Virus record (IMG/VR): IMGVR_UViG_2648501437_000021
Location: 1 to 4,388 of that record
Direction: 5' to 3' (one strand)
Origin: a virus
Taxonomy: Duplodnaviria > Heunggongvirae > Uroviricota > Caudoviricetes
Length of the DNA: 4,388 nucleotides
The translations under genes were made by a program, and so were the position numbers. Below, piece by piece: positions 1 to 4,388 of the stretch (position 1 is the stretch's first letter; the number at the start of each line of letters is the position of its first letter). The notes beneath the pieces are model-generated. The model was not told where the DNA came from. It searched no databases and saw nothing but the letters and a program-made list of their open reading frames with translations.

Positions 1-2
1 TA

Positions 3-800
3 TCATCAAACCGCCCGACACATTTCAGTTCATGGGCGCGCAGGAGCATTATTCCGGATCGTCTGGCAACCGCTATTCTGAACGCAGCCGGGCGCACCTC
101 AGCCTTCATCAGTGGTAAGGCACCGGAAATCAAACCCTCGCCCGGCGGCAACACGCCATCGGGTCCGTCTGCAGATACGTCCGTTCGCACAATCTCCCTG
201 CTGCCGGCAGCCGGAGAGGCTGCTGCGCAGGGCTGGAGCATTAAAGATGGCGGAATTCAGTTGTCAGATGGTGTATTTAAGATCACCAAGCAGAGCAATA
301 AAACCTGGTCCCTGACGCATCCGGTGGATGACGCAATTACCCTGCTGACACAGGGCGGCAGACTGACCTGTAAGTTCCGCCTGTCAGGCGCACTGACCAA
401 CAATCAGTTCGGGCTGGGGATTTATCTGTATACGGACGCTCCCGTTCCTGACGGCGTGGCGATGACCGGGACCGGTAACCCGTTCCTGATGTCGTACTTC
501 ACCCAGACCACAGACGGCAGAGTGAATCTGATGCATCACAAGAAAGCAGGAAACACAAAGCTGGGCGAGTTCGGCAATTACAGTAACGACTGGCAGACGC
601 TGGAACTGGTGTTCACCGCCGGCAGTGCCACGGTTACTCCGAAACTGAATGGAGTGGCTGGCCCGGCATTCCAGGTCATAAAAGACAGTCTGACACTGGG
701 ACTGAATGCGCTGACGCTGACGGATATTACAAAAAATGCAGCGTATGGCGTTGAGATAGAAAGTCTGGTGCTGGAGATAAATGCACCGGCATCATCATAA
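3..800 (+). CDS. 3'-terminal part of a larger late-region gene (5' end outside window); Pro/Gly/Ser-rich linker followed by a ~200-aa C-terminal domain of unknown function
   Basis: Frame 3 is open from the first base to TAA at 798-800, with no in-frame stop or ATG/GTG/TTG before the TTG at 261, so the listed 261..800 ORF is the tail of a longer gene. Codon usage is enterobacterial (ccg, ctg, gcc, ggc, acc). Residues encoded around nt 120-180 (APEIKPSPGGNTPSGPSADTS) look like an interdomain linker. It sits directly upstream of the holin, the position where lambdoid phages carry morons such as stx and nanS-p. Product identity not established. Confidence 0.7.
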   Translation, partial: SSNRPTHFSSWARRSIIPDRLATAILNAAGRTSAFISGKAPEIKPSPGGNTPSGPSADTSVRTISLLPAAGEAAAQGWSIKDGGIQLSDGVFKITKQSNKTWSLTHPVDDAITLLTQGGRLTCKFRLSGALTNNQFGLGIYLYTDAPVPDGVAMTGTGNPFLMSYFTQTTDGRVNLMHHKKAGNTKLGEFGNYSNDWQTLELVFTAGSATVTPKLNGVAGPAFQVIKDSLTLGLNALTLTDITKNAAYGVEIESLVLEINAPASS

Positions 801-883
801 AAAGTGAGCCAGCCAAATGGAAGGTATCGTTAAACTCACCGGTAGTGTCAGTGGGTCGTCTGAGACGCCTGCATGAGTTATCA

Positions 884-914
884 GAGCCATCAGTACTTAA
901 CTGGTGGCTTTTTT
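884..914 (+). terminator. Rho-independent terminator between the upstream gene and the holin
   Basis: AGCCATCAG (884-892) pairs with CTGGTGGCT (900-908) as a 9-bp stem with one G-U wobble, 7-nt loop TACTTAA, followed by a T6 run at 909-914. Confidence 0.6.
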
Positions 915-950
915 TATTGTTGTCAGCTTCCGGATAACGGGAGACGGGGT

Positions 951-1166
951 ATGGACCAGATGGAAAAAATCACAACAGGTGTGTCATACACCACGTCAGC
1001 GGTGGGAACGGGATACTGGTTACTGCAGCTGCTGGACAAAGTCTCCCCGTCCCAGTGGGCGGCAATAGGCGTGCTGGGGAGTCTGCTGTTTGGCCTGCTG
1101 ACATATCTGACTAACCTGTATTTCAAAATCAGAGAGGACCGGCGTAAGGCGGCGCGGGGAGAGTAA
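951..1166 (+). CDS. S: Class II holin of the phage 21 S type (pinholin), 71 aa, with Met1/Met4 dual-start motif
   Basis: [71 protein letters not shown] is near-colinear with phage 21 S as I recall it: weakly hydrophobic Gly/Ala-rich TMD1 (SAR-like), TMD2, and the same charged C-terminus [17 protein letters not shown] at 940-943 lies 7 nt upstream of ATG 951; a second in-frame ATG is at 960. The listed 873 start is an upstream extension through the terminator hairpin with no RBS. Confidence 0.85.
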
Positions 1167-1170
1167 AGCG

Positions 1171-1515
1171 ATGAAGAAAAAATACGAACTGGTTGTTAAA
1201 GGGATAAATAATTACCCGAATAAGATTACTGTTACTGTGGCACTGGAAATTGGTGGGTATCCGTCACTGTTGTTGCCAGATGTGGCGATTAGTCTTGACC
1301 GTACTGAAGATGCCACGCTGGAGTTTTACGAAGCTGAGGCGAAAAAGCAGGCGAAGCAGTTTTTCATGGATGTTGCTGCCGGGTTATGTGAAGGGGATGG
1401 TCCGTTGCCGGAAAAGCGCCCCGTAATTTTAGAGGCGCAGGATGTGTTGATAACCTACAGAGGAAAACTACCGGGAATAATTACTGGTTCTCTGAAGACT
1501 CCACCGCTGGCCTGA
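1171..1515 (+). CDS. Hypothetical 114-aa soluble acidic protein inserted between holin and endolysin
   Basis: ATG lies 4 nt after the holin stop (TAA 1164-1166), suggesting translational coupling. Clean ORF with enterobacterial codon usage, no signal peptide or TM segment. Position and size resemble small uncharacterised ORFs found between holin and endolysin in some E. coli lambdoid prophages (e.g. ydfR of Qin); homology not verified. Confidence 0.65.
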   Translation: MKKKYELVVKGINNYPNKITVTVALEIGGYPSLLLPDVAISLDRTEDATLEFYEAEAKKQAKQFFMDVAAGLCEGDGPLPEKRPVILEAQDVLITYRGKLPGIITGSLKTPPLA

Positions 1516-1565
1516 AGACTTAACATATCCAGGGATTTGAAATCGATAAACCCTGATAAATATCC

Positions 1566-2099
1566 ATGAACACAAAAATCAAATACGGCCTGTCGGCTGC
1601 CGTTCTGGCGCTGATTGCCGCAGGTGCGCCTGCGCCTGAAATCCTCGACCAGTTTCTGGATGAAAAGGAAGGCAACCACACCACGGCATACCGTGATGGC
1701 GCAGGTATCTGGACCATCTGCCGCGGTGCCATCATGGTGGATAGCAAACCTGTCGTCCCGGGCATGAAGTTGTCGAAGGAAAAATGCGACCAGGTTAACG
1801 CCATTGAACGTGATAAAGCGCTGGCATGGGTGGAGAAAAACATCAAAGTGCCACTGACCGAACCCCAGAAAGCGGGGATCGCGTCATTCTGTCCGTACAA
1901 CATTGGTCCCGGTAAATGTTTCCCGTCGACGTTTTACAGACGAATTAATGCAGGTGATCGCAGGGGAGCGTGTGAGGCGATTCGCTGGTGGATTAAGGAC
2001 GGTGGCAGAGACTGCCGTATTCGCTCAAATAACTGTTACGGTCAGGTATCCCGTCGCGACCAGGAGAGTGCGCTGGCGTGCTGGGGAATTGACAGATAA
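1566..2099 (+). CDS. R: SAR endolysin, T4-lysozyme-like muramidase (GH24), 177 aa
   Basis: N-terminal Gly/Ala-rich weakly hydrophobic SAR domain (YGLSAAVLALIAAGAPAP) without Cys. Catalytic triad in canonical T4L spacing: E35 (EGNHTT), D44 (RDG), T50 (GIWT). C-terminal region resembles phage 21 R / P1 Lyz family. Paired with a pinholin upstream, as expected for pinholin-SAR lysis systems. Confidence 0.9.
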   Translation: MNTKIKYGLSAAVLALIAAGAPAPEILDQFLDEKEGNHTTAYRDGAGIWTICRGAIMVDSKPVVPGMKLSKEKCDQVNAIERDKALAWVEKNIKVPLTEPQKAGIASFCPYNIGPGKCFPSTFYRRINAGDRRGACEAIRWWIKDGGRDCRIRSNNCYGQVSRRDQESALACWGIDR

Positions 2100-2188
2100 G
2101 CAGAATATTTTGCTGAAAAATGCGGTTTGCTCACACGGACGGATAACACGAAATCCTGAGAACTGACAAAAACTAAGTGAATAAAAGT

Positions 2189-2228
2189 AAAACCCCCATT
2201 TGTTGGCTGCAAGCGGGGTTTTGTGTTT
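2189..2228 (+). terminator. Hairpin with flanking A- and T-tracts downstream of the endolysin; possible weak or bidirectional terminator or RNA processing structure
   Basis: AAAACCCC (2189-2196) pairs with GGGGTTTT (2215-2222) around an 18-nt loop that has an internal TTG/CAA mini-stem, followed by a T-rich tail to 2228 (TTTTGTGTTT). Stem is short, so termination efficiency is uncertain. Confidence 0.3.
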
Positions 2229-2258
2229 CCTGACTCCGGAAAAGTCAAAGGAGAAAGT

Positions 2259-2396
2259 GTGTTTGATTTTAGCAAACTGATTCGGGAGATTCGAGTGATG
2301 GCTGAAAAATTATCCACCTGGAAGTTCATCCTTATCTGGCTGGTGTTTGTGATTATGGCCTCCGGTTATTTCATCGGTCAGATACGCTGGTGGTGA
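2259..2396 (+). CDS. Candidate small single-pass membrane peptide (45 codons) between endolysin and Rz; not in the supplied ORF track
   Basis: Consensus SD AAGGAG (2248-2253) lies 5 nt upstream of GTG 2259. The ORF reads (M)FDFSKLIREIRVMAEKLSTWKFILIWLVFVIMASGYFIGQIRWW and stops at TGA 2394-2396, one base before the Rz ATG (2398). It has a ~20-residue hydrophobic segment flanked by charged and aromatic residues. An alternative start is ATG 2298 (32 aa). Confidence 0.4.
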   Translation: MFDFSKLIREIRVMAEKLSTWKFILIWLVFVIMASGYFIGQIRWW

Positions 2397-2397
2397 A

Positions 2398-2892
2398 ATG
2401 AACCGCGTACTGTGCGTGGTCATCATTGCCCTGCTGGTGGCCTGTGGTGCGCTTAGTCTGGGGCTGAATCATTACCGTGATAACGCCATAACCTACAAAG
2501 AGCAGCGCGATAAAAAAGTCAGTGAGCTGGAGCTGGCAAATGCAACCATTACTGATATGCAGCAGCGCCAGCGTGATGTTGCTGCACTTGATGCCAGATA
2601 CTCGAGGGAATTAGCCGATGCGAGAGCTGAAAATGAAACTCTTCGCGCTGACGTTGCCGCTGGTCACCGCAGCCTGCGGATCAACGCCACCTGTCCAGGT
2701 CCCGTGCGTGAAGCCACCGGCACCGCCCGCGTGGATAATGCAACCGGCCCCCAACTGGCAGACACCGTTACACGGGATTATTTCACCCTCAGAGAGCGGC
2801 TGATGACGATGCAGAAGCAACTGGAAGGGGCACAGGACTATATCCGCACTCAGTGTACTAAGCAGGCTTTTTATTATCCGGAGGATGTATGA
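2398..2892 (+). CDS. Rz: Rz i-spanin (inner-membrane spanin subunit), 164 aa
   Basis: N-terminal TMD (VLCVVIIALLVACGALSLGL) followed by a coiled-coil-prone periplasmic domain; extensive colinearity with lambda Rz as recalled (NHYRDNAITYK.QRDK, ITDMQ.RQRDVAALDA, ERDYFTLRERL.TMQKQLEG). Confidence 0.9.
   Translation: MNRVLCVVIIALLVACGALSLGLNHYRDNAITYKEQRDKKVSELELANATITDMQQRQRDVAALDARYSRELADARAENETLRADVAAGHRSLRINATCPGPVREATGTARVDNATGPQLADTVTRDYFTLRERLMTMQKQLEGAQDYIRTQCTKQAFYYPEDV
2618..2803 (+). CDS. Rz1: Rz1 o-spanin (outer-membrane lipoprotein spanin subunit), embedded in the +1 frame of Rz
   Basis: Lipoprotein signal peptide with lipobox ending ...LVTAAC, then a proline-rich mature region (CVKPPAPPAWIMQPAPNWQTPLHGIISPSESG) closely matching lambda Rz1 as recalled. 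Lies entirely inside Rz in a different frame. Start could be ATG 2618 (lambda-like length to the lipobox Cys) or ATG 2633. Confidence 0.85.
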   Translation: MRELKMKLFALTLPLVTAACGSTPPVQVPCVKPPAPPAWIMQPAPNWQTPLHGIISPSESG

Positions 2893-3113
2893 AGAAATTG
2901 CAGGTAACGGTAAAACCTTTTCAGGGAACAATTCCGTTCCGTGTTTTGCAACATGGCCGTGTTCTGCTTGAAGAGGTGTTCAGAGGTAAATGCACTGAAT
3001 GTTATTCACGAACATATGAAGTGAATGCCACGCATGAAGAATTCACCGTTGAGTGTGTGATGAATACTGATAAATGCCGAATGGTATCCGCTGAATTACA
3101 GCCAGTGTGTTGA
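2889..3113 (+). CDS. Small Cys-rich hypothetical protein (74 aa), translationally coupled to Rz
   Basis: ATG 2889 overlaps the Rz stop (ATGA overlap, TGA 2890-2892). GGAGG at 2879-2883 lies 5 nt upstream. No signal peptide. Five cysteines including a CxxC pair (GKCTEC) plus C56, C63 and a C-terminal Cys, suggesting a small metal-binding or redox fold. No family recognised. Confidence 0.65.
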   Translation: MKKLQVTVKPFQGTIPFRVLQHGRVLLEEVFRGKCTECYSRTYEVNATHEEFTVECVMNTDKCRMVSAELQPVC

Positions 3114-3394
3114 GCGACCTTATTATCCATGCGCGGTATTGTCGCCGTATTCCTGCATTAACAGAGACCGCAGCCCGACAGGGAGACTCCTCTGCGAGAG
3201 TGTGCGGGGATAATCAAAAACGATACACACCGGGGTTTACCGCGTAAACGGAGCGCGGCGTTGTCCCCTCATGGTCGCTGGTCCGGTGCGATGGTGGAAG
3301 AAACCGGACGATGTGTTACCTCGCAAACTCTGTTATGTCATGTGTCTGATTTGTGATTTAAGTCGGATAATTGTCATTGCCATTAAGCAGAGGA

Positions 3395-3437
3395 TTGATG
3401 ACCGACAGGGCTGCATTGTTAGAATAAGACTTATTCT
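3395..3437 (+). promoter_or_regulatory. Candidate sigma70 promoter with a palindrome over the -10 region, upstream of the lipoprotein gene
   Basis: TTGATG (3395-3400) as -35 and TAGAAT (3420-3425) as -10, with a suboptimal 19-bp spacer. The -10 is embedded in a perfect inverted repeat AGAATAAG-a-CTTATTCT (3421-3437). AT-rich context about 20-60 bp upstream of the lipoprotein start. Confidence 0.25.
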
Positions 3438-3457
3438 TATCTATGCCGGGAATAAAA

Positions 3458-3784
3458 ATGAAAAGAAATCTTCCGTTAATTATTTTGTTGTCTTCTTTGG
3501 TTATGGGCTGTACGCAACATAAAACAGATATGCCTCGACAGTTGGTTAAGGCATTACCACAATATCCGGCCTATGCCGCGGCAAATTATATAAAGGGACG
3601 GGTTGATGTGAAGTTTGATATTGGTGCTGATGGTACTGTCACCCGAATTGAGTTTATCCGTTCAGAGCCGCACCATCTGTTTGATGAGCAGGTTGTAAAG
3701 GCGATGGCAAAATGGCGATTTGAGAAGGACAAGCCGCGTAAAGGCGTGAAGAAAACATTTATCTTTAGTCCTTCAGCACCCTGA
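3458..3784 (+). CDS. Lipoprotein consisting of a TonB C-terminal domain (TonB_C fold), 108 aa; predicted outer-membrane anchored
   Basis: Signal peptide MKRNLPLIILLSSLVMGC with lipobox VMG-C and Thr at +2 (no Asp, so Lol sorting to the outer membrane is predicted). The mature part, LPQYPAYAAANYIKGRVDVKFDIGADGTVTRIEFIRSEPHHLFDEQVVKAMAKWRFEKDKPRKGVKKTFIF, aligns motif-for-motif with the E. coli TonB C-terminal domain as recalled (PQYPA, G.V.VKFD, DG.V, S.P, F, V..AM..WR.E..KP). GGGA at 3449-3452 lies 5 nt upstream of ATG 3458; the listed 3443 start lacks an RBS. Confidence 0.8.
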   Translation: MKRNLPLIILLSSLVMGCTQHKTDMPRQLVKALPQYPAYAAANYIKGRVDVKFDIGADGTVTRIEFIRSEPHHLFDEQVVKAMAKWRFEKDKPRKGVKKTFIFSPSAP

Positions 3785-4241
3785 TTATTTTATCAGAAGT
3801 TAATTATCACTCTGTTGCTATTCAGTACATCCCTGCAGGGTAAAGTCTTGTTTCGCCGGATATGAAGATGAAATATTGTTAGAAGACAGTAGCTACCGGT
3901 TCCTGTAACCGAACGTTCATTTCTCGTTATTTTTCATGCTGGCCGGGCGCAGGTGCTTTGCATCTGTTGCCAGCCTTCTCCTGCAGGCTTCAATAACCCA
4001 TGCCGAAAAATTACCCGATCCCTTACGTTCAAGGGCAATATGGATTTGATTAATCATCTGGTTTGGGAAGCTTTATTTTTTGATGACATTGTGTTTTTCC
4101 GTGTTCAGTGCTGCTGATTTGTATTGTCTTAAGATGTCTTTACGTTAAGTTGACACAGATCAATTAATGCATGACTTGGACAAAATTGATTATTTGTCGT
4201 GGTTTTATGGTGTACGTGGGATGTGTGATGGTATTTATATA

Positions 4242-4388
4242 AATGATAATTATTATCATTTATTGGGTCCTTTCCGGCGATCCGGCAGGCTACGGGGCGG
4301 CGACCTCGCGGGTTTTCGCTATTTATGAAAATTTTCCGGTTTAAGGCGTTTCCGTTCTTCTTCGTCGTAACTTAATGTTTTTATTTAA
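4242..4388 (+). other. Lambda-type cos region (cosQ-side palindrome, cosN, start of cosB); continues beyond the window
   Basis: From 4295 to 4388 the sequence matches the left end of phage lambda as I recall it (GGGCGGCGACCTCGCGGGTTTTCGCTATTTATGAAAATTTTCCGGTTTAAGGCGTTTCCGTTCTTCTTCGTC.TAACTTAATGTTTTTATTTAA) with one mismatch. The sequence just upstream (GGTCCTTTCCGG.GATCCG.CAGG.TACG) resembles the lambda right end. An 8-bp inverted repeat ATGATAAT-t-ATTATCAT lies at 4242-4258. Confidence 0.8.
4295..4306 (+). other. cosN cohesive-end sequence (12-nt GGGCGGCGACCT)
   Basis: Exact match to the lambda 12-nt cohesive end as recalled, in the expected context between the right-end-like and left-end-like flanks. 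Confidence 0.75.

Follow-up and report, generated by a model that had tools for sequence, protein, structure and literature searches.

The lysis cassettes of phage 21, 933W and VT2-Sakai are of the form S-R-Rz, with the endolysin gene (R) at a start coupled to the holin gene (S) and no DUF1327 gene in between. In VT2-Sakai (933W-like), the ATG of R lies 4 nt after the stop of S, behind the Shine-Dalgarno-like run GGGGAGAG, and the junction reads ...GGGGAGAGTAAnnnnATG. A different arrangement is found in the cryptic prophage Qin of Escherichia coli K-12, in which the holin gene essQ is followed after 4 nt by ydfR (b1555, P76160), the type member of its family, and then by the lysozyme gene rrrQ. 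K-12 YdfR has 103 aa, and the stop of its gene overlaps the start of rrrQ (ATGA). Inducible Shiga-toxin phages of the BP-4795 type likewise have an ORF between S and R, which in the Stx1 phage BP-4795 itself is ORF47 ("hypothetical protein").

Our literature search returned one substantive experimental study on a member of this family, that of K-12 YdfR (PMC13232886, RNA Biol 2026). There, the protein was recovered in a two-hybrid screen and bound the N-terminal catalytic half of RNase E (residues 1-597), for which YdfR residues 1-72 suffice, and RNase E 1-598 co-eluted with Strep-tagged YdfR. The eluate also held DNase-resistant nucleic acid, indicating that RNA co-purified, with the warning that a contaminant might carry the RNA (PMC13232886). 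Overproduction of K-12 YdfR altered few transcripts and left growth unaffected, the gene is essentially silent in standard growth conditions, and the function of the protein was left open by the authors (PMC13232886). In addition, ydfR appears, without mechanism, in supplementary lists only of a CPRG screen (PMC3879167).

The stretch of DNA analysed here, the window, is the 4,388 nt at positions 1 to 4,388 of the Caudoviricetes record IMGVR_UViG_2648501437_000021. It is a lambdoid late-operon segment comprising the C-terminal part of a SASA-family esterase, a holin gene, a YdfR-family gene, R, Rz with embedded Rz1, and accessory ORFs. The features around the S-R slot are as follows.

261 to 800, plus strand: DUF6645 ORF, a NanS-p-like carbohydrate esterase of the SASA family, truncated by the window start to its C-terminal part
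951 to 1166, plus strand: phage-21-type class II holin (pinholin), Pfam PF04971 Phage_holin_2_1 (P21 holin S), 5.1e-33
1156 to 1163, plus strand: Shine-Dalgarno-like run GGGGAGAG within the 3' end of the holin gene, which can serve the ATG at 1171
1171 to 1515, plus strand: ydfR-family (DUF1327) gene, Pfam PF07041 (153 bits), PHROG 406, WP_000731267.1, BP-4795 ORF47
1171 to 1392, plus strand: Module A, residues 1-74, the family-defining N-terminal domain, from the AlphaFold2 model and alignments
1393 to 1512, plus strand: Module B, residues 75-114, GDGPLPEKRPVILEAQDVLITYRGKLPGIITGSLKTPPLA, from invariant alignment columns, with pLDDT <50
1175 to 1592, plus strand: extent of the optional cassette (about 0.4 kb), from blastn against VT2-Sakai, with homology blocks at 881-1174 and 1593-2110 of the window
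1516 to 1565, plus strand: 50-nt spacer before R, without an obvious Shine-Dalgarno, with a weak stem CAGGG...CCCTG
1566 to 2099, plus strand: lysozyme-family endolysin R, Pfam PF00959 Phage_lysozyme 2.5e-24, N-terminus MNTKIKYGLSAAVLALIAAGAPAPE...

The initial annotation had the coordinates and geometry of the YdfR-family gene right. The ORF is intact, with 114 codons between an ATG start and a TGA stop; the TAA of the holin gene (1164-1166) is followed by the four nucleotides AGCG and then the ATG at 1171, and exactly 50 nt separate its stop from the ATG of R at 1566. Upstream, the holin retains its dual starts (Met1/Met4), with the ATG at 951 giving 71 aa and that at 960 giving 68 aa, and the 97-aa holin ORF listed from position 873 is an over-extension, as the Pfam match begins at residue 31. 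Downstream, the hydrophobic N-terminus of R is typical of SAR endolysins, and judged by that feature R appears SAR-like. About 30 nt upstream of the holin starts at 951 and 960, positions 883-921 (plus strand) fold into a perfect 12-bp hairpin with a U-run behind it (AGAGCCAUCAGU...ACUGGUGGCUUU UUUUAUUGUU), with an MFE of -17 kcal/mol and a z of -4.0. Within the late operon it has the look of an intrinsic terminator, one that Q antitermination presumably overrides.

A check for DUF-class hits of the ydfR-like kind, which the initial annotation had suggested, returned Pfam DUF1327 (PF07041) with 153.1 bits, where the cut-off is 25 (E 2.4e-45, covering positions 1-92 of the 93 in the model). K-12 YdfR scores 179.9 bits against the same model, so that both proteins are far above the cut-off of one family. 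The protein also matches PHROG 406 at 4e-64; the label of that group, "unknown function", agrees with the statement of the initial annotation that such ORFs have no assigned function. No NCBIfam model matches the 114-aa protein, and neither Pfam, PHROG nor NCBIfam gave a lysis-category match for the YdfR-family protein. Several E. coli genomes in RefSeq, O104:H4 among them, match positions 1171-1565 with 100% DNA identity, and their annotation names the gene "YdfR family protein" (WP_000731267.1). Around the identical RefSeq copy the late operon runs Q antiterminator, tRNAs, SASA esterase, DUF1378, DUF826, class II holin, YdfR, lysozyme, lysis protein and terminase. Relatives 93-97% identical to the window protein are BP-4795 ORF47, an unannotated ORF of H-19B, and the YdfR family proteins of Stx2a_WGPS2 and phage 86. 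Phages of the BP-4795 type have an S-ORF-R geometry identical to that of the window (4-nt and 50-nt gaps) with few substitutions, while their accessory genes differ in that BP-4795 has ant between R and Rz.

The family is very common within a narrow host range. Absence of conservation beyond this one prophage had been named as part of what would refute the initial annotation's proposal; instead, 3007 of the 5426 complete E. coli genomes contain related DNA, some of them as many as 8 copies. A DUF1327 gene is encoded by 101 phage records, most of them 95-99% identical and including H-19B, BP-4795 and many Stx1a and Stx2c phages. When 1.84 billion representative proteins were searched exhaustively with HMMER, only 51 clusters matched, and a one-genome-per-species scan found the gene in no genus but Escherichia and Shigella, apart from two metagenome bins. 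These bins, labelled Veillonella and Bacillota (loci L006 and L008), were not taken as wider spread; their loci are near-identical to E. coli and are probably contamination. Database entries that appear as holin-DUF1327 fusions or as internally duplicated YdfR (P0001, P0010, P0067) are likely artefacts of frameshift or assembly, since holin and ydfR lie in different reading frames in the window. The element is thus already known, as Pfam DUF1327, as the NCBI "YdfR family protein" and as BP-4795 ORF47, and the window holds another copy of a catalogued gene, not a new kind of element.

There is virtually no chance that the ORF is spurious. Nothing speaks for a chance ORF beyond its small size, and the idea is already refuted by the conservation and the Pfam score; the PHROG match, the 4-nt junction, the confident fold described below and the expression and purification of the homologous K-12 protein (PMC13232886) count against it as well. 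Compared with a 63% identical allele the dN/dS is 0.39, and among the close alleles the more diverged ones give 0.2-0.4; the ORF is therefore a real gene under purifying selection.

Comparison with VT2-Sakai and the 933W type, where R follows S after 4 nt, bears out the proposal of the initial annotation that an extra gene occupies the S-R slot. The window and the phage 21, 933W and VT2-Sakai cassettes share the same holin family (95-97% identical), the same lysozyme (92.7% DNA identity in the R gene), and the same Shine-Dalgarno run with a 4-nt junction, but in the window 418 bp replace 23 bp of VT2-Sakai, the first nine R codons included. The cassette takes the holin-coupled start, and R is left behind a 50-nt leader. 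Among 427 phage records with an S21-type holin, only 101 carry DUF1327. Since about three quarters of these records are without the gene, and in VT2-Sakai, the one ydfR-less record examined for the S-R junction, R directly follows S, the holin/endolysin/spanin pathway can do without the gene, which is an optional addition and not a core lysis gene. Likewise, as holins 95-97% identical and an R gene 92.7% identical work without ydfR, it is not a required accessory.

The slot itself is strictly kept. In a junction survey of 90 sequences (89 fetched loci and the window), the holin stop and ydfR are 4 nt apart in 88, one has 9 nt, and one is without a holin in the stretch examined. K-12 Qin and BP-4795 have the gene in this slot as well. 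R lies no more than 400 nt downstream of ydfR in 74 of the 89 loci, and in most others R is further downstream or the contig ends. Even the most divergent alleles retain the slot (Evi at 41%, the K-12 type at 47% and mEp460 at 57% identity).

No sigma-70-like promoter or intrinsic terminator flanks 1171-1515 on the plus strand, and the gene should therefore be transcribed with the rest of the late operon, lysis genes included. This agrees with the initial annotation, by which the protein is made at lysis time. The GC content of the gene is 47-49% versus 50-53% in the neighbouring genes, which is no compositional break. A classic self-contained lambdoid moron, which would bring its own promoter and terminator and deviate in composition, was rejected on these grounds, although the gene is still an optional indel.

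One alternative is that the cassette acts in cis, lowering or uncoupling translation of the endolysin relative to the holin, with the protein of little consequence. R does lose its coupled GGGGAGAG...ATG site to ydfR, the 50-nt spacer is nearly invariant in 62 sequences with no Shine-Dalgarno seen, and alleles of the K-12 type re-couple R through an ATGA overlap of the ydfR stop and the R start. A pure spacer, however, would need neither purifying selection, nor a well-defined fold, nor invariant residues, and the spacer is without significant structure, so we regard a purely cis-acting cassette as very unlikely. The weak spacer hairpin was itself considered as a regulatory RNA and set aside, its folding energy being no better than that of shuffled sequence (z -0.13); an Rfam scan of the whole window gave no RNA family at E <= 1.

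The main rival to the reading we favour is a cytoplasmic regulator of lysis timing, in which YdfR would attach to the pinholin on its cytoplasmic face, through the charged C-terminal tail of the holin or the N-terminal end of its S71 antiholin form, and triggering would be delayed or sharpened. The gene sits 4 nt after an S21-type holin (88 of 90 sequences) and never elsewhere, in divergent alleles too, and translational coupling to the holin would fix the holin:YdfR ratio. Furthermore, the K-12 ydfR deletion scored in the CPRG screen for envelope leakiness (supplement of PMC3879167), a result that could equally be a polar effect on rrrQ. On the other hand, near-identical holins function in many phages without ydfR, the holin retains its own dual-start antiholin, and overproduction of K-12 YdfR had no growth phenotype (PMC13232886). 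With Pfam, PHROG and NCBIfam profiles, no similarity was detected to the known antiholins and regulators T4 RI and RIII, P1 LydB and S21-71, and no membrane or periplasmic domain was found.

The allele types also argue against such a regulator. YdfR falls to 41-47% identity with the holin still at 77-82% identity or more, and the two do not co-vary: a 97% identical holin is found with a 58% identical YdfR, and an 82% identical holin with a 47% identical YdfR. The YdfR-family gene evolves far more rapidly than the genes around it: in loci where YdfR identity drops to 47-63%, the holin stays at 81-82% and R at 89-92%. Between allele types, codons 20-45 cannot in practice be aligned (dN about 1.0). 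Given the above, a lysis-timing role is unlikely. The initial annotation had listed a lysis regulator and a holin or endolysin accessory among the candidate roles; nothing found here links the gene to lysis control, and the sole experiments with a member of the family indicate binding to RNase E and RNA, not to holin or endolysin (PMC13232886).

Another possibility is a moron-type accessory unrelated to lysis or RNA decay, for instance one acting in interference with competing phages, host fitness or defence, with the lysis cassette serving as a permissive insertion hot spot. The gene is an optional indel cassette, and the same lysis cassette is broken by other ORFs, namely ant between R and Rz in BP-4795 and VT2-Sakai and a 57-aa ORF at 2223-2396 in the window. 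A hypervariable loop and shuffled C-terminal modules, both described below, are typical of conflict genes, and cryptic prophages such as Qin still carry the gene. Yet it shows none of the promoter, terminator or compositional signs noted above, and it has one fixed slot where classic morons have varied positions. No PADLOC defence model matched the 114-aa protein or a 176-aa allele at E <= 0.1, and the K-12 gene is essentially silent (PMC13232886), making a benefit expressed in the lysogen unlikely. Taken together, an accessory of this kind is decidedly improbable.

Earlier the protein had been described as acidic and cytoplasmic. Its cytoplasmic character is supported by the lack of any hydrophobic stretch (the top 19-residue Kyte-Doolittle mean is 1.18), and neither a transmembrane segment nor a signal peptide was seen in the 114 aa. 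Its acidity was overstated, the pI being 5.46 with 15 D+E against 14 K+R and a net charge of about -1.5, which is marginal at best.

Alignments across the family reveal three modules. Module A, modelled by AlphaFold2 from a 27-sequence alignment with a mean pLDDT of 88.5, is predicted to consist of three antiparallel strands (residues 5-14, 18-27 and 38-43) packed on one long helix (50-74). Its hypervariable part is the loop between strands 2 and 3, at about residues 24-39, and the helix start, LEFYEAxA, is nearly invariant in the family alignment. Module B (...EKRPVILEAQDVLITYRGKLPGIITGSLKTPP) is highly conserved wherever present, and residues 74-114 are modelled at pLDDT <50; it may need a partner or oligomerisation in order to fold. 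The module is missing from K-12-type alleles, and the window allele differs from K-12 YdfR in having this conserved EKRPVILEAQ...TPP module and a 50-nt spacer before R, where the 103-aa K-12 protein has an unrelated C-terminus, which is helical (PMC13232886). In alleles of 176 and 183 aa, Module B is followed by 60-70 further residues.

The fold of Module A appears to be an orphan. Neither the full-length model (mean pLDDT 63.6), searched against PDB and BFVD, nor the Module A model, searched against PDB, gave a significant fold match, the best E-values being 0.13-0.18 in PDB and 0.019 in BFVD. A profile search of PDB sequences returned chance-level matches only (E 1.3). Foldseek gave partial matches over 37-55 residues (best E 0.13-0.5), with TM-scores of at most 0.41 to dsRBD and at most 0.37 to Mgm101 structures, and a Mgm101/Rad52-like or dsRBD strand-strand-strand-helix fold was rejected, the matches being too weak to use. 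The non-significant resemblance to the strand-strand-strand-helix part of dsRNA-binding domains is a lead only for a reading that involves RNA.

With these data we tentatively favour the possibility that the YdfR-family protein, expressed late and located in the cytoplasm, modulates RNA decay in the host and is not a component of lysis. A role in RNase E or RNA metabolism is proposed for the window protein because K-12 YdfR residues 1-72 bind RNase E and K-12 YdfR co-purifies with RNA (PMC13232886). The RNase E-binding region of K-12 YdfR is the domain that it has in common with the window protein, with 47% identity over residues 1-74 only. Under this scenario, a small soluble protein of the YdfR/DUF1327 family, carried on an optional cassette in a fixed late-operon slot of Escherichia and Shigella lambdoid phages, would be made together with the lysis proteins from the holin-coupled ribosome site that R uses elsewhere. 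Its conserved N-terminal domain would most likely act in the cytoplasm on host RNA metabolism, and we infer that late in infection it may bind or modulate RNase E and/or RNA, for example tuning the stability of the long late transcript. It would take no part in disrupting the membrane or cell wall, and the variable C-terminal modules and hypervariable loop may fit the protein to different partners.

Several observations weigh against the RNase E reading. The data come from overproduction assays with an allele that is 47% identical and has a different C-terminus, and a conserved host target such as RNase E is hard to square with a hypervariable loop. The small transcript response, the unchanged growth and the warning about a contaminant in that study (PMC13232886) count against it too, as does the absence of a significant match in the fold searches. 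The absolute linkage to the S21-type holin could also signal a functional tie to lysis. A broader formulation would hold that YdfR-family proteins are phage late proteins made in a fixed ratio with the pinholin, which either couple the end of infection to host RNA decay, by docking on the catalytic half of RNase E or by binding RNA, or form a new class of soluble pinholin regulators. Either way they would be a fifth, optional player in the pinholin/SAR-endolysin module, whose fast-evolving loop suggests conflict with a variable partner; we consider this formulation doubtful.

For both kinds of role there are small proteins with comparable activities. T4 RIII and P1 LydB are soluble or holin-adjacent antagonists of holins, and the phage phiKZ protein Dip binds RNase E. 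No sequence or fold similarity to the window protein was found for these three or for RapZ and RraA, and all five, small cytoplasmic proteins, are possible functional analogues only. RapZ and RraA are discussed as RNase E-binding proteins in the study of K-12 YdfR (PMC13232886).

The YdfR-family gene lies in the toxin-release operon of Shiga-toxin-converting prophages, and in other lambdoid prophages, of more than half of the complete E. coli genomes. If the gene does tune lysis timing or the stability of the late transcript, burst size and Stx release would be affected. To the existing descriptions of the family our analysis adds the boundaries of the indel, the take-over of the holin-coupled start, the three-module architecture with its hypervariable loop and the confidently modelled orphan N-terminal fold.

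Beyond the S-R slot, the rest of the window holds several further elements. Just downstream of the R stop, positions 2188-2222 (plus strand) form a stem, AAAACCCCC...GGGGUUUU, followed by GUGUUU, which is terminator-like but weak (z -1.4). The 57-aa ORF at 2223-2396 (plus strand) has one hydrophobic, transmembrane-like stretch (WKFILIWLVFVIMASGYFIG) and belongs to PHROG 6632 ("unknown function"); it fills the R-Rz gap as a second optional insert of the lysis cassette, and only 1 nt separates its end from the ATG of Rz at 2398. A cysteine-rich ORF of 74 aa at 2889-3113 (plus strand; PHROG 2571, unknown function, no Pfam match) has an ATG that overlaps the Rz stop (ATGA). The 113-aa protein encoded at 3443-3784 (plus strand) has a lipobox, LVMGC, and a TonB C-terminal domain (Pfam TonB_C 2.7e-15). 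By these motifs it looks like a prophage-borne accessory lipoprotein, and the "Rz-like spanin" label of its family, PHROG 1267, looks like a mislabel. On the opposite strand, positions 3917-4057 (minus strand) encode a 46-aa DUF3950 protein (YnfO/YlcI-like), an ORF that is also present in Qin and in the O104:H4 prophage.
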